The notes: generated from the sequence alone by a model not told the origin. DNA of 64,000 nt from a virus (IMGVR_UViG_3300012347_000217:110664-174663); one strand, 5' to 3'; counted from the first letter of the stretch, positions 24,591 to 51,680 are shown. Numbers and translations are program-made.

Positions 24591-27500
24591 TTGGCTTCAG
24601 CAAATACATTCGTAGTAAAGAACGGCCTTACCGTAGGCACAACCAACGTCATCGCAGCTAATGGCGTCTGGATCGGATCAACACTCGGCTTAACTGGTAC
24701 ACAAGGTCCTACTGGACCTACAGGTCCTGCCGGCGCAACAGGCCCACAAGGTCCCACAGGTCCAGCCGGTGCTACAGGTCCTGCCGGCGCAACAGGTCCC
24801 GCTGGCGCAACTGGTCCAACTGGTCCCGCCGGTGCTACAGGTCCTGCCGGTGCTACAGGTCCTACAGGTCCAGCTGGAGCTACTGGTGCTACAGGTCCCA
24901 CAGGTCCTGCCGGTGCTACTGGTCCTGCCGGCGCAACAGGTCCCGCTGGCGCAACTGGTCCAACAGGTCCAGGAGCAATCGTCACATCGACAACATCAGC
25001 TACTCCTGCATCCTCAGGAACAATTACACTCACAGTCAACACGACTAACCATTCATTTGCAACTGGTAACCGTGTAAGAGCAGTTAATACTACATCGAAC
25101 TATTTCGAAGGTATCGTCACAATCACTGGTACATCATTTGCTATTGAAGCAGATTTTAGTGCAGGCTCATCAACAGCAACATCTTGGACAGTTACGGTAG
25201 CTGGTGCAAGGGGTGCAACAGGACCTTCAGGTCCTACAGGCCCAACTGGTGCTACAGGCCCAACTGGTCCACAAGGTGTATCTGGACCAACCGGCCCAAC
25301 TGGTGCTACAGGTTCTACAGGACCTACAGGCCCAACTGGAGCCACAGGTTCTACAGGCCCAACAGGCCCTACTGGTGCAACAGGCTCAACCGGCCCTACA
25401 GGTCCTGCCGGTGCAACAGGCTCAACAGGCCCTACTGGCCCAACTGGAGCTACGGGTGCCACAGGACCTACTGGTCCTACTGGTGCAACAGGCTCAACCG
25501 GCCCTACTGGCCCAACTGGAGCTACGGGTGCCACAGGACCTACTGGTCCTACTGGTGCAACAGGCTCAACCGGCCCTACTGGCCCAACTGGAGCTACGGG
25601 TGCCACAGGACCTACTGGTCCTACTGGTGCAACAGGAGCCACAGGCCCAACTGGCCCACAAGGACCAACTGGTCCTACTGGTGCAACAGGACCAACAGGT
25701 GCAACTGGACCTACTGGCCCATCATTCATTGCTACTTCGACAACACTCGTAACACCAGCATCAACTGGAACAATTACACTCACAGCAACATCTTCTAACC
25801 ATGCTTTTGCAACTGGTGACCGTGTACGTGCAATCAACACGACTTCAAATTACTTCGAAGGTATTGTAACTATTACTGGTGGCACATCATTTGCCATCGC
25901 AGCAGACTTCAACGTTGGTTCATCAGCGGCATCTTCTTGGACAATCTCATTAGCTGGCGAAAGAGGTTCTACAGGCCCTTCAGGCCCTTCAGGTCCTCTT
26001 GGACCACCAGCACCACAAGGAGCTACGGGTGCCACAGGCCCTACTGGCCCATCAGGACCAACCGGTGCCACAGGTCCTACAGGTCCTGCCGGTCCAGTTG
26101 CAGGTGACGCCAATCAAGTAATCTATAGAAACTCGTCAAACGTTGCAACAGGTAGTGCAAGTTTAACCTTTGATGGAACAATAATTTCTGCGCCACAGTT
26201 GACACTATCCAATTCGCAAGGTGATGAAGGTGGTGAATTATTGTTGGCTAAGCCACAAACAAACTCAAACATTGCAGGCACTGGTGTAACCATCGACGTT
26301 TACCAGAATAAGTTGAGAATTTTTGAACAAGGTGGTGGTGCTCGTGGTGCATATATTGATTTGACTGCCACAACTGCTGGTGTAGGATCAAACTTATTAT
26401 CTGGTGGTGCAACAGGTGCCACAGGCCCAACAGGTCCTGCAGGTGCCACAGGCCCAACAGGTCCAACCGGCGCAACAGGTCCTGCAGGTGCTACAGGCCC
26501 AACAGGTGCTACAGGACCAACCGGCCCAACAGGTGCTACTGGTCCTGCAGGTGCAACTGGCCCAACCGGTCCATCAGGACCAACTGGTCCACTGAAATAT
26601 GCTACCTCTACCACAACAAACACACCAAATAATGGACCATTCAGCTTCACAGTAGCTTCGGCTGACCACGGTTTCGTTGTGGGTGACCGTGTAAGAGTAT
26701 ACAACGTTTCAAACAATTACCTTGAAGGTACTATTTCAGGCTTCGCCGGTAGCGGAACAATATTCTCAATCAATTCCGACTTTTTCGTTGGTTCAACATC
26801 TGCATCATCTTGGATAATCACTTCAGTTGGTTCATTGGGTTCAACAGGTCCAACAGGTCCATCAGGTCCAAGAGGTCCAACAGGTCCAACAGGTCCTAGT
26901 GGTCCAACAGGCCCAACGGGTCCTAGTGGTCCAACAGGTCCTAGTGGTCCAAGAGGTTCTACTGGCCCAACAGGGCCACAAGCTTATGCAACATCATCAA
27001 CAAATCAACAAGCCACTGTTGGTTCTGGATTAACATTAATAACAGACCAAACTTTCCACAGTTTTAGTATAGGAAGTAGAGTACGTGCAATCAACACGAC
27101 TTCGAATTACTTCGAAGGTAATATAACAAGTATATATGGTACTCCTAGCTATTTTGACATATTACCAGATGTGGTAGTCGGTGGATCATTCGCATCATCT
27201 TGGACAATAACTTTAGCTGGTATAGCAGGTGCATCAGGTCCAACAGGTCCAGCTGGTACAGGTGCTACAGGCCCAACGGGACCACAAGGTGTATCTGGAC
27301 CAACAGGCCCACAAGGTGTATCTGGACCAACAGGCCCATCAGGTGGTATTCTCATCAACATGAACGATAATGAACTGGTAACTCCAGTCATTAAAGATTA
27401 TGCAATGAAGGTTAATGCCAGGGGTTCAATTACTGGTGCACAAACACTCGACATGACTTTGGGTAACTATATAACTGCAACAGCAACAGGTGCAATTACA

Positions 27501-27722
27501 TGGACATTCTCAAACCCACCCGCTACAGGTAATGCTGGAGGCTTTGTTCTTGTTCTGACTAACGGTGGTATTGGTACACAAACATGGCCAGCCGGTGTAG
27601 TTAAGTGGCCAGCAGCTACTGCGCCAACACTACAAGCCTCAGGTGTTGACGTATTGACATTCATAACAAATGATGCAGGAACTACATGGCGTGGTGTGTT
27701 ATCAATGGGTGCAAGCTCGTAA
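24591..27722 (+). CDS. Collagen-like tail fibre (Gly-X-Thr repeats) with four interspersed ~75-aa beta-rich domains
   Basis: TTG start after AAGGGG. N-terminus [14 protein letters not shown]; long GPT/GAT/GST runs; C-terminal TLDMTLGNY...TWTFSNPP...TWP..VKWP...VDVLTFIT tip domain. Confidence 0.85.
25428..25636 (+). repeat. Perfect 72-nt tandem repeat (~2.9 copies) within the collagen region
   Basis: caactggagctacgggtgccacaggacc starts at 25441, 25513 and 25585, with identical synonymous sites. Confidence 0.9.
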
Positions 27723-27731
27723 GGATTAAAA

Positions 27732-28223
27732 ATGGAAATTAAAAAATATGCATTAGTGGAAAACAATGCGGTGACAGAAACTCACGAAGTGTTACCACAT
27801 TGCTGGAGAAATATTTCAGGTCTTGACCTTTCCAAAGATAATATTGAATTTCTAAATAGTGTTGGATGGTACGAGATTGAAGCAAATACGCAATCACAAT
27901 TAGTCACAGGTGATAGCTATATCTCGGAATATACATACACCTTTTCCGACAATAAAGTTATTTCAACTCCGGTTATACAAACTATTACCAGAATCAGTGT
28001 AACCAAAGAAGATTTCATGGAAAGCCTGAGAAAAATGCGAGATTCTGAATTGAGTAGCACAGATTGGACACAAGCTGCGGATGTAATAGCAATTAAATCG
28101 GATGAATTCACACAAGCCTGGAAAAATTATAGACAACAATTAAGAGATATCACGCAACAATATGAAAATGTCGAATCATATGATGATTTGATTATTACAT
28201 TTCCTGATAAACCACAAGTTTAA
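27732..28223 (+). CDS. Tail fibre assembly chaperone
   Basis: C-terminal LRKMRDSELSSTDWTQAAD...WKNYRQQLRDIT...FPDKP motif typical of fibre assembly chaperones; directly follows the fibre gene. Confidence 0.75.
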   Translation: MEIKKYALVENNAVTETHEVLPHCWRNISGLDLSKDNIEFLNSVGWYEIEANTQSQLVTGDSYISEYTYTFSDNKVISTPVIQTITRISVTKEDFMESLRKMRDSELSSTDWTQAADVIAIKSDEFTQAWKNYRQQLRDITQQYENVESYDDLIITFPDKPQV

Positions 28224-28228
28224 TAAAA

Positions 28229-31200
28229 ATGATAGTAGAACAATTATTGGCTAAGGCGCAAGGTGGTAGCGCACCCTATGTACCCAATACGAATCTTCAT
28301 ATGTGGGGTGACGTTGTTAGTACAGGTATCAGTTACGACCAAGGCGCTTTTTTCAACCATGCAAGGCGAGTTGGCACATCTTCTTGGACAATGGTTTCTG
28401 TAGGTGCAACGTTTGGTGCAGCAATTCGTAACGATGGTAAACTGTTCACATGGGGCACAGGTTCTTCCGGTCAATTGGGTGACGGCACAGCATTCGCAAA
28501 TAAATCATCACCAGTTCAAATTGGCGCCTCATCATGGACAATGGTTAAATTAGGAGGAACACATGCAAGCGCAATTCGCTCCGATGGTAAACTATTTATG
28601 TGGGGTAACAACGATTATGGTCAATTAGGTGATAATGCTGCCGGCACGTTTTCAAGATCATCACCAGTACAGCTCGGCTCCTCATCATGGACAGCAATTT
28701 GCAACGGAGATGGAACATCTTATGCAATTCGCTCCGATGGTATGTTATTTGCATGGGGTAGGAACTATCATGGCCAATTAGGCAAAGGTGATAACTTGTT
28801 AGTCTCATCACCAGTGCAAATTGGCTCCTCATCATGGACAGCGATACATGCCGGAAGCACGCATGTAATAGCACTGAGATCCGATGGAAAATTATTCGCA
28901 TGGGGTAACAACGGTAATGGAGAATTAGGTGACCCAACTCTAGGCGCAAGGGCACATTCAACACCAACTGCACACCGTTATGCCGGATCACAATCATGGA
29001 TAGCAATTGCTGGTGGCGCAAGCTCGATGGTAGGAATTCGCTCCGATGGTAAGCTGTTCACATGGGGATACAATAATAACGCATCTTTGGGTATTGGTGA
29101 ATTTTCACAAAGATTGGAATATTCACCTATACAATTAGGCACTTCTAACTGGATTACATGTGCGGCTGGACCAGCATTTGCATTAGCAATTAGATCCGAT
29201 AATATTCTTTTTGGTTGGGGTTGGAATCTGGGTGGTGAATTAGGTTATGGAGATACAACATCAAAGTCATCGCCAGTGCAAATTGGCTCCTCATCATGGA
29301 CAGCAGTTGCCTGCGGTCTATCACATACAATGGCAATTCGTGCAGATGGAACATTGTTCGCATGGGGCGCAGGCACTTCCGGACAATTAGGTGATAGTAC
29401 GGTCACAAACAAATCATCACCAGTGCAAATTGGTTCTTCATCATGGGTAGCGATTGCCTGTGGAAATTTTTTCAGTTTAGCAATTCGTGCTACGGATCGT
29501 AAACTGTTCGCATGGGGCGCAGGCACCAACGGACAATTAGGTGATGGTACGATTGTAGGCAAATCATCACCAGTGCAAATTGGCTCCTCATCATGGACAG
29601 CGGTTGCCGGTGGAGGATCACATACAGTGGCAATTCGTCTTGGTGGAACATTGTTCGCATGGGGCGCAGGTACTTCTGGTGTTTTGGGTGATAACACAGC
29701 CGTACAGAAATCATCACCAGTGCAAATTGGCTCCTCATCATGGACAATGGTGCGGGCAACAAGTACACAGAATTCATATGCATTGCGCTCCGATGGTGCA
29801 CTGTTCGCATGGGGCGTTAATAGCTACTTTACGGTAGGTGATGCAACACTTACCACAAGATCCTCTCCAGTGCAAATAGCTGCGGGTACAGTATTTAACA
29901 ACATAGCAAACCTACAGTTTTCAACATATGCTCAAGGTGCATTCGTGAGTTCGAAGTATTATTCTTGGGGAAATGATAGGGCAGCCGGGGCTCTTCCACT
30001 AACTTTCCAAGGATATGATCCGGGATCAATGTCGCCAGTGCAAATTGGTTCTTCATCATGGGTAGCAGTTGGCGGAGGCTCTAACTTTAGTGCTGCAATT
30101 CGTGCTGGTGGAACATTGTTCACATGGGGATATAACGGTGTATCAGCACTGGGTGATGGTACGATTTTATCCAAATCGTCTCCAGTACAAATTGGTTCCT
30201 CTTCTTGGTCGGCTATTGGCAGTGGCGCACTTGGTGTAAATTTGTTGGCAAAAAGATCCGATAACGCATTATTCATAGCCGGTGTACAAGCATATAAACC
30301 AAAGGGTGGTCCACTCCTTGGACCAACACCATTCACACAAGTCAATACATTAGATCAAATTACTGCGCAATATGTTCCAGCGAATCTGGTATCTATGTCA
30401 CCTGGACCAACCAATGTCATGGCAGTAGGAGCAAATGGTGAATTGGCCGGTTGGGGAAACAACATACCACAAAATCCTTTACTTGGTGTTCCTTCCGAAT
30501 TGCTCACACCAACAAATGTGGATACCACAAACGTATGGAAACAAGTGGTTGTAAATATGACTGGCATAAACAATCAAAGCACAACTTCTGAAAAACCAAG
30601 ATTTATTCTTGGAATAAAATCTAATGGTACACTGTGGGGCTGGGGTGATAATGGTTCAGGTAATTTAGGCACTAATGACATCTCGCAAAAATTATCACCA
30701 GTGCAAATTGGCTCATCTTCTTGGACAATGGTTAGTGCGGGTCAAGCACATGCAGCAGCAATTCGTGCTGGTGGAACATTGTTCGCTTGGGGTTTAGGCA
30801 ATAACGGACAATTGGGTGACGGTACTTCCGCAAGCAAGTCATCACCAGTACAAATTGGTTCCTCATCATGGACAGCAGTTGCCTGCGGAGAAAATGGCAC
30901 ATATGCAATTCGTTCCGATGGTAAGCTATTTGCTTGGGGCTTAGGAACCGCTGGACGACTAGGTGATGGTACGGTCATAGCCAAGATATCACCGGTGCAA
31001 ATTGGTAACTCATCATGGACAGCAATTTCTGCTGCTCAACATGTACTGGCAATTCGTGCAGGTGGAACATTGTTCGCATGGGGCTTAGGAACCGGTGGAC
31101 AATTAGGTGATGGTACGATTGCATCCAAATCGTCTCCAGTACAAATTGGTTCCTCATCATGGACAGCAATTTCTACTTCAGTAAGTACCAGTGCAGCAAT

Positions 31201-31522
31201 TCGTTCCGATGGTAAGCTATTCACATGGGGTATGGGCACGCAAGGTGGTTTGGGTGATGGCACAGTCACGACCAAATCGTCTCCAGTACAAATTGGTTCA
31301 TCATCATGGACAATGGTTTCAATAGGCTATCTTGGTGGCTTGGCTAAGAGAGTAGACAACAAATTATTTGCCTGGGGCCTAAACGCCAACGGACAATTGG
31401 GTGACGGAACAAAAACAAACAAGTCGTCTCCAGTAGCAGTAACAATGGCCGCCGGACAAACAGCAAACACCATCGTTTTCCGTGGCATAGATATGCCGGT
31501 TGTCATGATTCCGCTGACATAA
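28229..31522 (+). CDS. RCC1/BLIP-II repeat protein (~21 blades, probably three 7-bladed beta-propellers); putative fibre-tip adhesin
   Basis: About 20 units of W-TA[VI]..G..H..AIRSDG.LFAWG....GQLGDGT...KSSPVQIGSSS, plus split N- and C-terminal half-blades. Confidence 0.85.
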   Translation: MIVEQLLAKAQGGSAPYVPNTNLHMWGDVVSTGISYDQGAFFNHARRVGTSSWTMVSVGATFGAAIRNDGKLFTWGTGSSGQLGDGTAFANKSSPVQIGASSWTMVKLGGTHASAIRSDGKLFMWGNNDYGQLGDNAAGTFSRSSPVQLGSSSWTAICNGDGTSYAIRSDGMLFAWGRNYHGQLGKGDNLLVSSPVQIGSSSWTAIHAGSTHVIALRSDGKLFAWGNNGNGELGDPTLGARAHSTPTAHRYAGSQSWIAIAGGASSMVGIRSDGKLFTWGYNNNASLGIGEFSQRLEYSPIQLGTSNWITCAAGPAFALAIRSDNILFGWGWNLGGELGYGDTTSKSSPVQIGSSSWTAVACGLSHTMAIRADGTLFAWGAGTSGQLGDSTVTNKSSPVQIGSSSWVAIACGNFFSLAIRATDRKLFAWGAGTNGQLGDGTIVGKSSPVQIGSSSWTAVAGGGSHTVAIRLGGTLFAWGAGTSGVLGDNTAVQKSSPVQIGSSSWTMVRATSTQNSYALRSDGALFAWGVNSYFTVGDATLTTRSSPVQIAAGTVFNNIANLQFSTYAQGAFVSSKYYSWGNDRAAGALPLTFQGYDPGSMSPVQIGSSSWVAVGGGSNFSAAIRAGGTLFTWGYNGVSALGDGTILSKSSPVQIGSSSWSAIGSGALGVNLLAKRSDNALFIAGVQAYKPKGGPLLGPTPFTQVNTLDQITAQYVPANLVSMSPGPTNVMAVGANGELAGWGNNIPQNPLLGVPSELLTPTNVDTTNVWKQVVVNMTGINNQSTTSEKPRFILGIKSNGTLWGWGDNGSGNLGTNDISQKLSPVQIGSSSWTMVSAGQAHAAAIRAGGTLFAWGLGNNGQLGDGTSASKSSPVQIGSSSWTAVACGENGTYAIRSDGKLFAWGLGTAGRLGDGTVIAKISPVQIGNSSWTAISAAQHVLAIRAGGTLFAWGLGTGGQLGDGTIASKSSPVQIGSSSWTAISTSVSTSAAIRSDGKLFTWGMGTQGGLGDGTVTTKSSPVQIGSSSWTMVSIGYLGGLAKRVDNKLFAWGLNANGQLGDGTKTNKSSPVAVTMAAGQTANTIVFRGIDMPVVMIPLT

Positions 31523-31525
31523 ATA
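31518..31525 (+). promoter_or_regulatory. Putative late promoter (CATAAATA) upstream of the modification-enzyme cassette
   Basis: Same octamer as at 14891, 34780 and 39580. It overlaps the RCC1 gene stop codon, so chance occurrence is possible. Confidence 0.5.
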
Positions 31526-31551
31526 AAATATATTATTATTATTGAGGTATT

Positions 31552-32610
31552 ATGCATAAAATTGACCAACAATTAAACCTTATGCTAAGAGGCAAATTTG
31601 AAGAAGGTTGGAAACTCAGTGAACAAATGCACGAGGAACATCCAGAGAACACCAGACACCTATTCAATAGAGGGTGGTTCTTACTACATCAAGGCGACTT
31701 GCAAGGTGGCTTTCAAGCACTAGAAAATGGAAGAGAACTTAAAGTCTATGGTGGTGGCCATATAGGAACAAAAAAACCTATTTGGAACCAGCAAGATGAC
31801 CTGAACGGTAAAATAGTAATAATCGCACTAGAGTGTGGTTTCGGTGACCAAATGATTTATGTGCGTTTTGCATCTGAAGTACAGAAACGTGGTGGTAAAT
31901 GCATCATTTGTGGAACAAAATTATTACACAGCCTATTCGCACGAGTTCCTGGTGTAGAAAAATGTATCACACTAGATGAGGTACAAACAACACGGCATGA
32001 TTATTGGATTCCAGGATTTAGTTGCTCTTGGATTTTTGGTCACACATTTGAGACATTACCAAATCAGCCATACATGTCAGCATTACCTGAAAGTGTCGAA
32101 GTGTGGAAATCAATGCTTGATGGCATGAAGCAACGTTCTGGACCAAAGATAGGTATCAGATGGAGTGGCAGTCCACTATTCGAGCATCAACAATTCAGAG
32201 TTTTCCCGCCTGAGTTTTTAATCAACCTATATAAACGAACTGATGCACAATTCTTTAGTTTTCAAAGAGATACTGATATTATAGAATTGCCGGATGAAAT
32301 AGTTGACCTACAGCATATGTTGCTTTCATGGGAAGATACAGCAGCGGCATTGAAGAATTTAGATTTACTCATAACATCTTGCACAAGCGTGGCACACTTA
32401 GCCTCAGCAATGGGTGTTCCAACATGGGTAATCGTTCCGATATTACCGTACCATTGCTGGACATATGGTGATGAGCACAGTCCATGGTACCAAAATACAA
32501 CAAAAGTCTATAGACAAAAAGATTTTGGTCGATGGGAAAAAACATTTGAAAAGCTAGGTAATGACCTAGAAGTATTTGTAAACAATCTTAATGAGAAAGA
32601 AAGTGAATAA
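31552..32610 (+). CDS. TPR-associated GT-B glycosyltransferase (GT9/FlbA-FlmG-like)
   Basis: Short TPR-like helix pair (FNRGWFLLHQGDLQGGF), ECGFGDQ (EQG.GD-type motif), KIGIRWSG, and WEDTAAALKNLDLLITSCTSVAHLASAMGVPTW. Confidence 0.75.
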   Translation: MHKIDQQLNLMLRGKFEEGWKLSEQMHEEHPENTRHLFNRGWFLLHQGDLQGGFQALENGRELKVYGGGHIGTKKPIWNQQDDLNGKIVIIALECGFGDQMIYVRFASEVQKRGGKCIICGTKLLHSLFARVPGVEKCITLDEVQTTRHDYWIPGFSCSWIFGHTFETLPNQPYMSALPESVEVWKSMLDGMKQRSGPKIGIRWSGSPLFEHQQFRVFPPEFLINLYKRTDAQFFSFQRDTDIIELPDEIVDLQHMLLSWEDTAAALKNLDLLITSCTSVAHLASAMGVPTWVIVPILPYHCWTYGDEHSPWYQNTTKVYRQKDFGRWEKTFEKLGNDLEVFVNNLNEKESE

Positions 32611-32612
32611 TT

Positions 32613-33410
32613 ATGGCTAAACAATTTTATTTTATTGCAGGTCTACCACGTTCAGGTAGCACAATGATGATAAACATATTGAAACAAAATCCAGAAATTT
32701 TCGGACACAGTGTTAGTTCTTTGTATGAAATTTTCACAAATACATATAACAAATGGGACATGGTTGAAGAAAATTTAGTATTCCAAAATGACACGGCAAA
32801 ATTGAATGTGTTGAAGTCTATAATGGAAGGCTACTATGAAGACAACGATAAAGTCATCATATTCGATAAGAACCCTATGTGGGTCTCCAAGATTGCAATC
32901 TTAGAAGAAGTTTTAGGACAGAAGATTAAGATTCTTTGTATGGTAAGAAACCCAGCACAAATCTTAACGTCATTCGAAAGATTAAAAAGAAACAATCCAA
33001 AAGATGTTACCTTGACTGACCTGAAATTGGGTGAGAATACATCAATTGCGGGCAGAGCATATCATTATTCTTCACCAGAAGGTAAGATGGGACTACCATT
33101 CCAGCAACTTCGTGATGCAATCACTATGGGTTACATGGACCGATTCCTGTTCGTAGATTATAACAAGTTCTGCAATACGCCGAAGGCACAGATGAAGCGC
33201 ATCTACGATTTCTTTGAGTTACCGGAATTCAAACATGACTTCACGAACATCGAACAGAACGAAGTCTTCAATGATAATTTCTCCAAATTACCAGGTCAAT
33301 ATAAAATTAAAAATAAACTGGAAAGAACTACTGTTAATCCAGTGGAGTTTATCGGTTTAGATTTGTATGAGCAATACAACCGTGAAATCTTTTGGGACGC
33401 ATTGATTTAA
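32613..33410 (+). CDS. PAPS-dependent sulfotransferase
   Basis: 5'-PSB loop FIAGLPRSGST, DKNP, and 3'-PB motif CMVRNPAQILTSF. Confidence 0.85.
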   Translation: MAKQFYFIAGLPRSGSTMMINILKQNPEIFGHSVSSLYEIFTNTYNKWDMVEENLVFQNDTAKLNVLKSIMEGYYEDNDKVIIFDKNPMWVSKIAILEEVLGQKIKILCMVRNPAQILTSFERLKRNNPKDVTLTDLKLGENTSIAGRAYHYSSPEGKMGLPFQQLRDAITMGYMDRFLFVDYNKFCNTPKAQMKRIYDFFELPEFKHDFTNIEQNEVFNDNFSKLPGQYKIKNKLERTTVNPVEFIGLDLYEQYNREIFWDALI

Positions 33411-33419
33411 GGAATTATT

Positions 33420-34031
33420 ATGAGCGAACAACCTGAATTGAAAAAATTAAATCTTGGCTGTGGGTTTAAAAAGAGAGATGATTATTGGAACGTAGACGTT
33501 GAACCAAAATGTCGTCCAGACCAAGTAGTTAACCTCGAACAGACACCTTGGCCATGGGAAGATAACTTCTTCACACACATCGACATGGATAATATCTTAG
33601 AACATCTAGGTCAAACACCAGCAAAGTTCACAGATATTATGAAAGAACTATATCGTGTTAGTGCTGATAAGGCAGAGTGGGTCATCTGTGTACCACACCA
33701 TCGTTGCGATTTATTTTGGGACGATTACACACACGTGCGAGTACTAACAGCAAAAACATTCAGGATGTTTGACCAAGAAGTTAACGTAGAGTCAATCAAA
33801 CGTAAGTTATCCGATTCTACTTTCGGTCTATACCACGATATCGACATTGAGGTGACCGATGTTACTTACAATATTGTGAGTTATTGGAGAGACCAGCTCG
33901 AAAAAGGATTCATTTCTCAGTTCCAGTTTGATATGAAAATGAATACGATTTCGAACGTAGCAGAATCTATCAATATCTTCATTACAGTACATAAGCCTGG
34001 ACGCCAAGCCAATTATCTGAAAGTAAATTGA
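33420..34031 (+). CDS. SAM-dependent methyltransferase (type 11-like)
   Basis: KLNLGCG motif I, NVD, PWPWEDN, ILEHL and KELYRV. Confidence 0.8.
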   Translation: MSEQPELKKLNLGCGFKKRDDYWNVDVEPKCRPDQVVNLEQTPWPWEDNFFTHIDMDNILEHLGQTPAKFTDIMKELYRVSADKAEWVICVPHHRCDLFWDDYTHVRVLTAKTFRMFDQEVNVESIKRKLSDSTFGLYHDIDIEVTDVTYNIVSYWRDQLEKGFISQFQFDMKMNTISNVAESINIFITVHKPGRQANYLKVN

Positions 34032-34771
34032 TGTTTAATATAGGTGACAAAGTACACAGAAATGTGCTTCTACCCTGTGACCATGGACTGATGATTGTCA
34101 ATCGTTTCGACTGTAACGAGAATCAGGTCGGTCATGGTCAATGGTTACTAGACCACGGCAACACAACAACTGTCGAGGCATCTATTTGTGTAGATGCTTT
34201 GAGAGGTAAAGTTGCTCCTACAATCTTTGATATTGGAGCAAATATAGGAACATTCACGACATGGATGGCAAAAGTGTATCCACAAGGTAAGATATATGCA
34301 TTTGAACCACAGAGAATCGTGTTTCAGATGTTATGTGGTAACATGTCTATCAATAACCATGATAATGTTTATGCTATGAATATGGGTCTTGGTGATGAAA
34401 ATGGTACTATCGAGTTCTTTGAACCAGACTATACACAAAAAGTGGACTATGGAACATTCAGCTTGGTTGAAAAAGTTATCGACAAGACAACCAACAATCT
34501 AAGTGTCGTTGATATCTCAACATTAGATAGTTTCATGTCTAAGCATAAGATTGAGAAGGTTGACCTATTGAAGATTGATGTTGAAGGTATGGACATTCAA
34601 GTATTGCGTGGAGCAAAAGAGACAATACAGAGATGTAAACCAGCAATCTTCATCGAGCATTCGGATAACCGTAAGTCTGTTATGCAGGAGATTGAAAAAG
34701 AGTTGGACCAATACAAATATTGTTATGAGGTGCATGGAAACAACGTCTTGGCCACACCAATATTCAGGTAA
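34031..34771 (+). CDS. FkbM-family methyltransferase
   Basis: FDIGANIGTF, YAFEPQ and LLKIDVEG..IQVLRGA motifs. The ATG overlaps the upstream TGA (TGATG). Confidence 0.85.
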   Translation: MFNIGDKVHRNVLLPCDHGLMIVNRFDCNENQVGHGQWLLDHGNTTTVEASICVDALRGKVAPTIFDIGANIGTFTTWMAKVYPQGKIYAFEPQRIVFQMLCGNMSINNHDNVYAMNMGLGDENGTIEFFEPDYTQKVDYGTFSLVEKVIDKTTNNLSVVDISTLDSFMSKHKIEKVDLLKIDVEGMDIQVLRGAKETIQRCKPAIFIEHSDNRKSVMQEIEKELDQYKYCYEVHGNNVLATPIFR

Positions 34772-34779
34772 AATAATAA

Positions 34780-34787
34780 CATAAATA
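34780..34787 (+). promoter_or_regulatory. Putative late promoter (CATAAATA)
   Basis: Intergenic, 20 nt before gp13. Confidence 0.7.
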
Positions 34788-34807: not shown

Positions 34808-35584
34808 ATGGCCACCGTATCCAACAGACAAGAATTCAAACAATACTGCTTACGTAAACTGGGATTTCCAACCATCGAAATCAACATTGACGACGACCAG
34901 GTAGAAGACCGCATTGATGATGCACTGCAATACTGGCAAGACTACCATTTTGATGGTCTACAAAAGATTTATTACGTTAGACGCTTGGATGCGACAGATG
35001 TAGCAAACAAATATGTGGATTTAAGACCAGAAGTCACAGTAGATTCATCCAATACGAGCGTCAACATCGTTGGTGTTACACGTATTTTCCCAATCACATC
35101 TTCTCTGAATTCTACAAACATGTTCGACCTACGCTACCAATTGCGTTTGAATGAACTGTATGACTTCACATCTGCATCCTATGTGAACTACACACTCACT
35201 ATGCAGCACCTTCGCTCACTCGAATTGATGTTCTCTGGTGAGACTCCAATCCGTTTCCAGCGCCATCAGCACAGACTATACTGTGACTTGGCATGGGGTC
35301 GTGAGGCTAAAGAAGGTACAGTTATCGTAGCAGAATGTTATGCTACTATTGACGAGAATGCCTATGCATCCGTCTGGTCAGACCGCTGGTTAAAGAACTA
35401 TGCAACAGCACTTATCAAACAAAACTGGGGTGCTAACCTGAAGAAGTTTGCTGGTGTACAACTTCCAGGTGGTGTCACCCTGAACGGTCAAGTTATCTTT
35501 GACGAAGCAACAGCAGAAATTGAAGCCTTACAGAAAGATATGATTGATAGCTACTCAGGTCCACTAGAGTGGTTTATGAACTAA
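34808..35584 (+). CDS. gp13: Neck protein (head completion)
   Basis: YCLRKLGFPTIEINIDDDQVEDRIDDALQ...WLKNYATALIKQNWGANLKKFAGVQLPGGVTLNG. Confidence 0.92.
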   Translation: MATVSNRQEFKQYCLRKLGFPTIEINIDDDQVEDRIDDALQYWQDYHFDGLQKIYYVRRLDATDVANKYVDLRPEVTVDSSNTSVNIVGVTRIFPITSSLNSTNMFDLRYQLRLNELYDFTSASYVNYTLTMQHLRSLELMFSGETPIRFQRHQHRLYCDLAWGREAKEGTVIVAECYATIDENAYASVWSDRWLKNYATALIKQNWGANLKKFAGVQLPGGVTLNGQVIFDEATAEIEALQKDMIDSYSGPLEWFMN

Positions 35585-51045: not shown

Positions 51046-51074
51046 ACTATACGCCTTTGTCAAGTAAAAGTCAA
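51046..51074 (-). promoter_or_regulatory. Antisense sigma70-type promoter (TTGACT-17-TATAGT on the minus strand)
   Basis: Plus-strand ACTATA at 51046-51051 and AGTCAA at 51069-51074 are separated by exactly 17 nt. Confidence 0.55.
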
Positions 51075-51083
51075 GACATTATT

Positions 51084-51680
51084 ATGGTAAACATGACACA
51101 AACTACTACAAACACTAAAAAGCATTACATCAACAACGCTGATTTCTGCAAAGCCCTTACAAACTACAAAGAGGGCGTAGCAGCAGCGAAAGCTGCGGGT
51201 AAGGATACACCACCTATTCCAGAGTACATTGGTGAGTGCTTCATCAAGATTGCAGAAGGTCTATCACACAAACCCAACTTCATCAACTACCCGTTTCGTG
51301 AGGAAATGGTAGCAGACGGCATCGAGAACTGTCTGATGTACTTTGCAAACTTTGATACGACCAAGTCTTCTAACGCATTTGCTTACTTCACACAAATCAT
51401 CTACTATGCGTTCTTACGAAGAATCCAAAAAGAGAAGAAGCAACTGTATGTAAAGTACAAAGCTACTGAACAGTTCGGCATCTTGGATGAAAATGAAATG
51501 CTGGGTTACGAAGAAGCTACAGGTAAACAGTACGAAGTGTATGACAACATTTCCGAGTTCATCGAAAACTTCGAAGAAACCAAACGCAAGAAGAAAGACA
51601 TTAAGAAGGCTAAAGGCATCGAAAACTTCCTAGAACTGGATGTTATACCGGAAGAAATCGTTGACACCGAAGAAGAATGA
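51084..51680 (+). CDS. gp55: Late-transcription sigma factor
   Basis: HYINNADF, YIGECFIKIAEGLSHKPNFINY.FREEMVADGIENCL and NAFAYFTQIIYYAFLRRIQKEKKQ. The start is more likely ATG 51084 or 51093 than TTG 51057. Confidence 0.95.
   Translation: MVNMTQTTTNTKKHYINNADFCKALTNYKEGVAAAKAAGKDTPPIPEYIGECFIKIAEGLSHKPNFINYPFREEMVADGIENCLMYFANFDTTKSSNAFAYFTQIIYYAFLRRIQKEKKQLYVKYKATEQFGILDENEMLGYEEATGKQYEVYDNISEFIENFEETKRKKKDIKKAKGIENFLELDVIPEEIVDTEEE

Follow-up and report, generated by a model that had tools for sequence, protein, structure and literature searches.

A viral cassette of glycosyltransferase, sulfotransferase and methyltransferase genes linked to an RCC1 beta-propeller: a candidate system for tailoring a fibre-tip protein

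What do a glycosyltransferase, a sulfotransferase and two methyltransferases do within the tail module of a T4-like virus, and which molecule do they modify? The question is raised by a 64,000-nucleotide stretch of viral DNA (hereafter the window), which corresponds to bases 110664-174663 of the 177,309-bp IMG/VR virus record IMGVR_UViG_3300012347_000217, a T4-like myovirus rated complete. Four co-directional + strand open reading frames (ORFs) fill positions 31552-34771, between the fibre genes and the neck gene gp13, and confirm the four tightly spaced enzyme genes, their classes and their position in the tail module as given in an initial annotation of this DNA. We propose, at a probability of roughly 0.55, that the phage uses this cassette to tailor a protein-linked glycan, with the product of the adjacent gene, an RCC1 beta-propeller, as the target. 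The propeller gene and the cassette are laid out as follows.

28229-31522, + strand: RCC1-repeat triple beta-propeller, predicted fibre-tip protein and predicted substrate (PF25390, 3e-163; PF00415, 1e-142)
31518-31525, + strand: late-promoter-like octamer CATAAATA of the T4 type before the transferase, 26 nucleotides before the ATG of P0001
31552-32610, + strand: P0001, glycosyltransferase with tetratricopeptide repeats (TPR) and a GT-B fold, 352 amino acids, predicted from profiles and a structure model to be a protein heptosyltransferase
32613-33410, + strand: P0002, sulfotransferase of the 3'-phosphoadenosine 5'-phosphosulfate (PAPS) type, 265 amino acids (PF13469, PF00685)
33420-34031, + strand: P0003, class I S-adenosylmethionine (SAM) methyltransferase, 203 amino acids, assigned by fold and motif I
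34031-34771, + strand: P0004, FkbM methyltransferase, 246 amino acids from its ATG, with a TTG at 34028 (PF05050, TIGR01444)
34780-34787, + strand: next octamer CATAAATA, before gp13, marking the downstream end of the cassette

Gaps of 2 and 9 nucleotides, followed by a 1-nucleotide TGATG stop/start overlap, indicate that the four genes form one translationally coupled operon.

Comparison across phages ties these enzymes to the propeller. We annotated 37 viral loci by BLAST against the window proteins and with Pfam and NCBIfam models; 30 of them were found with the transferase, five independently with RCC1, and two belong to the cultured cyanophages S-SRM01 and BUCT-ZZ01. In BUCT-ZZ01, a Synechococcus phage, RCC1 adjoins a fusion of glycosyltransferase and methyltransferase. 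The methyltransferase of gene 3 is present in 35 of the 37 loci, RCC1 in 32, the sulfotransferase in 23 and FkbM in 16, while the collagen-like fibre co-occurs in 20 and the tail-fibre assembly chaperone in 16. The initial annotation had proposed a synteny survey for co-occurrence with Gly-X-Thr fibres; such an association exists but is weaker than that with RCC1. Pairing of RCC1 with the transferase persists down to 27% transferase identity, and each of the five loci anchored on RCC1 carries the transferase, the sulfotransferase and the gene-3 methyltransferase. Five loci are without RCC1, three of them truncated on the relevant side and the other two (L031 and L032) holding an unannotated gene for 680 amino acids upstream of the transferase. 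A further set was anchored on gp13 and comprised 41 relatives with at least 5 kb of upstream sequence. RCC1 and the transferase occur together in six of these and are both missing from 34; a single truncated locus shows RCC1 alone, and the transferase is never found by itself (Fisher p = 1.6e-6 for joint presence; 1e-4 after removal of near-duplicates). From this joint presence and absence we conclude that the propeller and the enzymes form a single accessory unit within the variable stretch that separates the fibre genes from the neck gene. The targets first suggested, fibres or sheath, can be narrowed accordingly: a predicted fibre-tip protein, RCC1, is now favoured, and the conserved partner is neither the Gly-X-Thr fibre nor the sheath.

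The pairing extends to bacteria, whose genomes were scanned with a narrower alignment of the transferase family. The complete genome of Bdellovibrio bacteriovorus Bd16 shows, in order, an unknown protein of 1038 amino acids, the transferase, the gene-3 methyltransferase and an RCC1 protein of 1091 amino acids. A pseudouridine synthase and an EamA transporter on the upstream flank give this locus a housekeeping setting, and no phage genes were recognised among the scanned flanking ORFs. Many metagenome-assembled genomes (MAGs) of Bdellovibrionales likewise carry the pair of transferase and RCC1. Two Bdellovibrio triple propellers (L129:8610-11885 and L135:3567-6914), encoded beside homologues of the transferase and the methyltransferase, have twin-arginine (Tat) signals, SRRAFL and TRRGFL, from which it follows that the Bdellovibrio RCC1 protein would fold in the cytoplasm, reachable by soluble enzymes. 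These propellers may be glycosylated surface adhesins of the predatory bacterium. Distant homologues of the transferase with long TPR arrays (30-33% identity), from Caballeronia and Acetobacteraceae, occur without RCC1. Several of the loci L119-L125, which hold the closest 'bacterial' homologues and come from MAGs labelled Bacteroidetes, Saccharibacteria and Nomurabacteria, resemble mis-binned phage DNA; at L120 a collagen-like fibre, a chaperone, RCC1, a fusion of glycosyltransferase and methyltransferase, and gp13 share one MAG contig.

The RCC1 protein itself has 1097 residues in about 21 blades and is encoded by the sole RCC1 gene of the genome. At least 12 of the blades are nearly identical, each with KSSPVQIGSSSW, and the central ones (approximately residues 525-800) are divergent. 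Serine makes up 12.6% of the protein, and we speculate that the KSSPVQIGSSSW blade sites could serve as acceptors. The protein belongs to phrog_4219, of which three RCC1 members were detected by mass spectrometry (MS) in purified virions of E. coli phage W70 (PMC11370258). Two further genes of the tail module precede it.

24591-27722, + strand: collagen-like (Gly-X-Thr) fibre (PF01391, 3e-63)
27732-28223, + strand: tail-fibre assembly chaperone (PF16778, 3e-12; phrog_4912, 8e-14)

The C-terminal domain of the fibre (approximately residues 922-1038, nucleotides 27354-27704, about 115 residues) recurs elsewhere as the N-terminal domain of RCC1-propeller proteins, at 36-52% identity. Fusions of this kind are found in contigs binned to the candidate phyla radiation (CPR), namely L122:1377-2834, L123:2845-5376 and L125:60-2657, and suggest that the propeller may dock on, or extend, the collagen-like fibre. 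Given its position after the fibre and chaperone genes, the fibre-domain fusions and the W70 data, the RCC1 protein is predicted to be a distal part of the fibre or virion.

If the propeller is the substrate, the transferase should be of a protein-modifying type, and its structure model points in this direction. As single queries against Pfam, NCBIfam and PDB sequences (P0001) or Pfam (P0003, no significant model), neither P0001 nor P0003 gave a usable assignment, so that profiles and structure models were needed. The transferase family, aligned from 46 sequences, is very large: 1,175 scored representatives of 90%-identity clusters match at E <= 0.001. Matching clusters at 50% identity number 31,519, and many of these are giant proteins in which the unit is repeated 3-7 times in tandem. 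P0001 keeps 34 of 34 invariant or near-invariant family positions and conserves an E-x-G-x-G-D loop after beta1 and a T-S-x-x-H-L-A motif. Its residues 1-65 correspond to a TPR pair by profile matches to TPR proteins and to the TPR domain of OGT, and the AlphaFold2 (AF2) model (pLDDT 95.3) places four or five short helices ahead of the GT-B domain. The top match among Swiss-Prot models of AFDB, searched with Foldseek, is Caulobacter FlbA (P21296, 596 amino acids), which we take to be FlmG from its equal length and its renaming. Residues 234-595 of this protein cover P0001 residues 7-344 at 21% identity, with a TM score of 0.82 by query and E 2e-19. The Swiss-Prot matches that come after it are heptosyltransferases at TM ~0.5, the protein heptosyltransferases TibC, Aah and BAHT being among the next structural matches, and the PDB matches are enzymes of glycosyltransferase family 9 (GT9), namely 3tov, 1psw (WaaF), 4rap (TibC) and 2h1h (WaaC), at TM 0.41-0.51 and E 8e-7 to 4e-4. 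The likeness to FlmG/FlbA proposed initially therefore returns as the top structural match, and the placement left between FlmG and the lipopolysaccharide (LPS) heptosyltransferases comes out with FlmG closest and GT9 next.

Membership of GT9 is less apparent in sequence. PF01075, the GT9 model, is weakly matched by 17 of the 46 family members (best E 1e-5) and not by P0001, for which TIGR02193 reaches only E 0.16, and P0001 is thus not assigned to GT9 by these models. When the family profile was aligned with E. coli WaaC and WaaF by hhalign (probability 23% and 5%, respectively), the C-terminal motif alone was aligned, T-S-x-x-H-L-A of the family falling on D-T-G-x-x-H-L of WaaC; the catalytic Asp after beta1 is consequently assigned by topology only. 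Some homologues are named ADP-heptose:LPS heptosyltransferase by the Joint Genome Institute (JGI).

The remaining three enzymes belong to classes frequently found in glycan tailoring. P0002 exceeds the cut-offs of PF13469 (1e-16, 62 bits against 27) and PF00685 (1e-15, 58 bits against 22), matches phrog_27463 at 2e-50 and retains the 5'-phosphosulfate-binding (5'-PSB) loop GLPRSGST and the 3'-phosphate-binding (3'-PB) motif VRNP. P0003, of a Methyltransf_11-like kind, matches phrog_6636 (7e-8) and keeps motif I, LNLGCG; the 50 PDB matches listed for its AF2 model (pLDDT 94.5) are without exception annotated as methyltransferases, as are the majority of those listed from Swiss-Prot, at TM ~0.5. 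P0004 is recognised by PF05050 (2e-25, 90 bits, cut-off 22.7) and TIGR01444 (2e-39, 135 bits, cut-off 37.7). Several of these genes are joined in nature. The gene-3 methyltransferase is fused to the C-terminus of the transferase in 13 viral loci, transferase and sulfotransferase are fused in both orders in MAG-binned contigs of CPR, Methylobacter, Betaproteobacteria and Acidithiobacillus, and fusions of FkbM with the transferase occur in either order in some MAG-binned contigs (L143 and L166). Judged from the sequences, such natural fusions tie the enzymes into one pathway.

Which sugar would be transferred is indicated by relatives. Cassettes of close relatives, with transferases 67% identical, add HldE/HldD-like genes, a WbuC-type cupin, extra methyltransferases and GT2/GT25 genes. 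The HldE/HldD-like genes, with matches to rfaE domain I (5e-40), rfaE domain II (5e-29) and ADP-glycero-manno-heptose 6-epimerase (3e-64), occur in 12 loci that cover both fused and unfused transferase clades. Their presence makes ADP-heptose the best guess for the donor and heptose the likely sugar. For the sulfate, a two-domain protein of ~260-285 amino acids, composed of a P-loop domain like that of adenosine 5'-phosphosulfate (APS) kinase and an adenylyltransferase-like domain (L011:11871-12728, L010:12685-13476), accompanies 11 of the 23 sulfotransferase loci and none of the 14 loci without a sulfotransferase (p = 0.002). We regard this APS-kinase-like protein as a candidate minimal phage PAPS synthase or PAPS-supply enzyme. 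An APS kinase, a NAD-dependent epimerase, a sugar nucleotidyltransferase and the HldE/HldD of relatives were looked for across the entire 177-kb genome, the window included, and none was found; one CTP_transf_like match lies outside the window, at 79.2 kb of the genome. Lacking the tested donor genes, the phage would draw on host ADP-heptose and PAPS. That nucleotide-sugar and PAPS synthesis genes are missing from the window, as first noted, is borne out for the genes tested and extends to the whole genome. No flagellin or NeuB-like gene was found among the annotated neighbours, a search that did not cover every unknown ORF. Outside the window and far from the cassette, the genome also has a GT2 match (2e-13, G000:C1:19543-19899) and a 2-oxoglutarate (2OG)-Fe(II) oxygenase match (3e-10, G000:C1:8971-9216).

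When the cassette is expressed bears on whether virion proteins could be its targets. The relevant downstream genes are gp13, the first of a series that continues with gp14, gp15 and gp18, and the gene of the late sigma factor.

34808-35584: neck gene gp13 (phrog_211, 2e-41)
51057-51680: late sigma gene gp55 (phrog_234, 4e-59)

The heptamer ATAAATA occurs 15 times on the + strand of the window, and eight of these sites fall within -60 to -9 of a gene start, a zone that makes up 4% of the window (binomial 3e-8). These eight lie 11-47 nucleotides upstream of the starts and include the sites preceding gp13, gp18, gp19 and gp23; control heptamers of the same composition reach at most four promoter-positioned sites. 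Among 40 relatives, the NATAAATA motif is found 26-58 nucleotides upstream of the transferase homologue in 14, and a CTAAATA variant at -38 in three more. The window cassette itself has CATAAATA at -26 to -34 as a TATAAATA-like -10 element, and the phage encodes the gp55 sigma, as expected of a putative T4-type late promoter. The late-promoter octamer that the initial annotation placed before the cassette is thereby upheld and gains a positional enrichment, but its statement that no sigma70 promoter is present needs correction, as two sigma70-like matches (TTGTCA-18-TAAAAT and CTGACA-17-TATTAT, 10/12 each) overlap positions 31500-31542 and share the spacer with the late octamer. Matches of this type are not enriched in the region (27 found vs 29 expected), and the one nearest P0001 would, by inspection, place the transcription start beyond the GAGGT ribosome site. 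AT-richness probably accounts for both. Taken together, the promoter statistics, the conservation of the motif in relatives and the presence of gp55 support late expression as the probable timing. A lookup of sequencing runs by sequence words from the region and the first two genes returned no RNA run and two DNA runs with small shares.

The proposed order of events would then be as follows. RNA polymerase with gp55 would transcribe the four genes as one operon late in infection, and the cytoplasmic TPR-GT-B enzyme would put a sugar on the folded RCC1 protein, most likely L-glycero-D-manno-heptose from host ADP-heptose and probably on Ser/Thr acceptors. The class I and FkbM methyltransferases would O-methylate this sugar, the sulfotransferase would add sulfate from host PAPS, and the decorated propeller would be built into the fibre. 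Tailoring of RCC1 in the cytoplasm is the simplest account of the protein-type fold of the transferase, the fusions, the RCC1 partner in both phage and non-phage settings, the late promoter and the donor genes of relatives. We infer virion decoration, as did the initial annotation, now on much stronger comparative evidence.

A number of observations weigh against this proposal. The support is wholly comparative and structural, and gene linkage shows shared function and not an enzyme-substrate relation, so that the propeller could bind a glycan or act as a scaffold. The RCC1 proteins of S-SRM01 are without the Ser-rich blade motif. The TPR part of P0001 amounts to about two repeats, unlike the long flagellin-binding array of FlmG, so that the case for substrate binding through the TPRs is weak here. 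A complex prediction for the transferase with RCC1 residues 1-380 (score 0.00) bears on binding in neither direction. The donor is an extrapolation from relatives with transferases of 44-67% identity, the phage's own genome having neither heptose nor PAPS genes, and the HldE/HldD-like and APS-kinase-like matches lie below the NCBIfam curated cut-offs. Finally, GT9 enzymes classically act on LPS, and the GT25 and GT2 genes of relatives are of types usually named for LPS or polysaccharide synthesis.

These last points are also in line with late remodelling of host envelope glycans, such as LPS core, O-antigen or exopolysaccharide, by which the phage could prevent its progeny from sticking to debris or exclude other phages. 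The GT9 fold, with LPS heptosyltransferases as its classic members, the JGI naming of homologues and the GT25 and GT2 genes would all fit, and cyanophage glycosyltransferases are usually interpreted as acting on the host surface or on DNA (PMC12801897). We nevertheless doubt this explanation, since it accounts neither for the near-obligatory linkage to RCC1, including that in non-phage Bdellovibrio operons, nor for a protein glycosyltransferase as the nearest structure. None of the cassettes showed flippase, ligase or lipid-carrier genes, and with a place in the late structural module and a late-type promoter there would presumably be little time for an envelope to be rebuilt. Decoration of other virion proteins, for example of the sheath or, as in BclA, of the Gly-X-Thr collagen-like fibre, is an unlikely alternative of a different kind. 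The fibre consists of 19% threonine and is present in 20 of the 37 loci, and the Gly-X-Thr repeats of Bacillus BclA bear O-glycans with a methylated sugar. Co-encoded sulfotransferases have moreover been predicted to act on collagen-like and tail-collar proteins (Iyer et al. 2010, PMC2938197). However, the fibre accompanies the cassette less often than RCC1 does (32 of 37), many of the gp13-anchored relatives have collagen-like fibres without the transferase, and the Bdellovibrio operons hold RCC1, with no homologue of the window's collagen-like fibre found there by BLAST.

RCC1 might also not be a substrate at all and instead serve as a lectin, scaffold or specificity factor together with a glycan or small molecule that the enzymes produce; it might, for instance, bind a sulfated sugar. 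Linkage and fusions prove shared function only, and beta-propellers are common carbohydrate binders. We consider this role quite improbable, as the enzymes come without accompanying carrier, polymerase or export genes, and the minimal Bdellovibrio unit of transferase, methyltransferase and RCC1 most simply fits an enzyme plus its substrate. Hypermodification of phage DNA through glycosylation of modified bases has a precedent in phage glycosyltransferases that put diverse glycans on DNA (10.1101/2023.12.21.572611). For this cassette it was judged very unlikely indeed, given a position in the late structural module, away from replication genes, a TPR and FlmG-like architecture, the linkage to RCC1 and the occurrence of cassette genes in bacteria without phage genes. 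We know of no sulfated DNA glycan. Tailoring of the RCC1 propeller remains the reading that we prefer.

Several known systems resemble parts of the cassette. P0001 shares with WaaC and WaaF (CAZy GT9) the GT-B fold, the C-terminal motif (as aligned with WaaC) and a G-x-G-D loop after beta1, the last by inspection and not by residue-level superposition, but the sequence similarity is marginal, the motif Asp is Cys in P0001, and the TPR extension and protein-linked context are particular to the cassette. The BAHT enzymes (TibC, Aah) have a GT9-like GT-B fold (TM 0.41-0.48 to P0001) and heptosylate Ser of a repeat-rich adhesin in the cytoplasm from ADP-heptose; they are without TPR, and what they modify is an autotransporter with a beta-helix in place of a beta-propeller. 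TibC binds iron and assembles as a dodecamer. We know of no sulfation or methylation in the BAHT family. In Chlorovirus PBCV-1, A064R, which decorates a virion protein, joins glycosyltransferase domains to a methyltransferase and is a viral example of a cytoplasmic glycosyltransferase fused to a sugar methyltransferase. PBCV-1 differs in being a eukaryotic virus with N-linked glycans on its major capsid protein, in unrelated folds and in the lack of sulfation. FlmG is a soluble cytoplasmic enzyme of TPR and GT-B parts that O-glycosylates flagellins with pseudaminic acid before export, and its TPR domain comprises residues 1-313 (PMC7591256). P0001, for which it is the best structural match, likewise has TPR and then GT-B, but with ~65 residues in place of a flagellin-binding TPR array of ~300, and with ADP-heptose genes in relatives and RCC1 in place of pseudaminic acid and flagellin.

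Phage virion glycosylation is, to our knowledge, established only for mycobacteriophages. It is credited to Freeman et al. 2023 in PMC12619734 and PMC12801897, the former of which locates the glycans at the C-terminal ends of the subunits of capsid and tail tube. In these phages, too, phage-encoded glycosyltransferases decorate the phage's own structural proteins, but the system as outlined has no RCC1, sulfotransferase or TPR-GT9 and belongs to phages of actinobacterial hosts. Iyer et al. (2010, PMC2938197) described bacterial hydroxylase-sulfotransferase-methyltransferase modules, sometimes with PAPS synthetase genes, in which fibre-like proteins are predicted to be sulfated and methylated. 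Those modules are centred on 2OG-Fe(II) hydroxylases that make the hydroxyl for sulfation, whereas the present cassette has a glycosyltransferase core and an RCC1 partner; a likeness exists in relative L043, which carries a 2OG-Fe(II) oxygenase and a second sulfotransferase. Upstream of gp13, L043 (398-9973), L048 and L050 hold a sulfotransferase and an APS-kinase-like gene without RCC1 or TPR-GT9, and L043 additionally has arrays of paralogues of ~340 amino acids with weak DUF4907 matches. Their gene content suggests that the gp13 locus can house a sulfation module of a second type. A full-text literature search returned no account of a module that combines TPR-GT9, a methyltransferase and a sulfotransferase and is tied to RCC1, in agreement with the initial view that a glyco-sulfo-methyl pathway is undescribed for T4-like virions.

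As for the virus that carries the cassette, its major capsid protein shows ~64% identity to the counterparts in OM43 phage Melnitz, Pelagibacter phage Mosig and Synechococcus phage S-SKS1, and psbA was not found in the 177-kb genome. The cassette DNA had no blastn match among 50,697 phage records, and relatives of the cassette in cultured phages are detectable at the protein level only.

The comparative evidence points to dedicated decoration of a fibre-tip protein with a sulfated, methylated sugar, and the same gene set occurs in predatory bacteria, which must also attach to their prey. It is possible, at somewhat less than even chances, that this represents a self-contained 'glyco-RCC1' module, in which a beta-propeller adhesin is heptosylated, methylated and sulfated in the cytoplasm by a dedicated TPR-GT9 set, and which is shared and exchanged among aquatic T4-like phages and Bdellovibrio and is also found in CPR-binned contigs. 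Were this so, phage virions would have their first sulfated glycoprotein, bacterial protein glycosylation would gain a new class of substrate, and RCC1 propellers would count as glycoproteins of a new bacterial class. The cassette would provide a compact enzyme set for protein heptosylation, sulfation and methylation. The decorated propeller would be a likely determinant of host range or prey range, and glycan tailoring would be one of the factors that set adsorption and host range for myoviruses abundant in fresh and marine waters.

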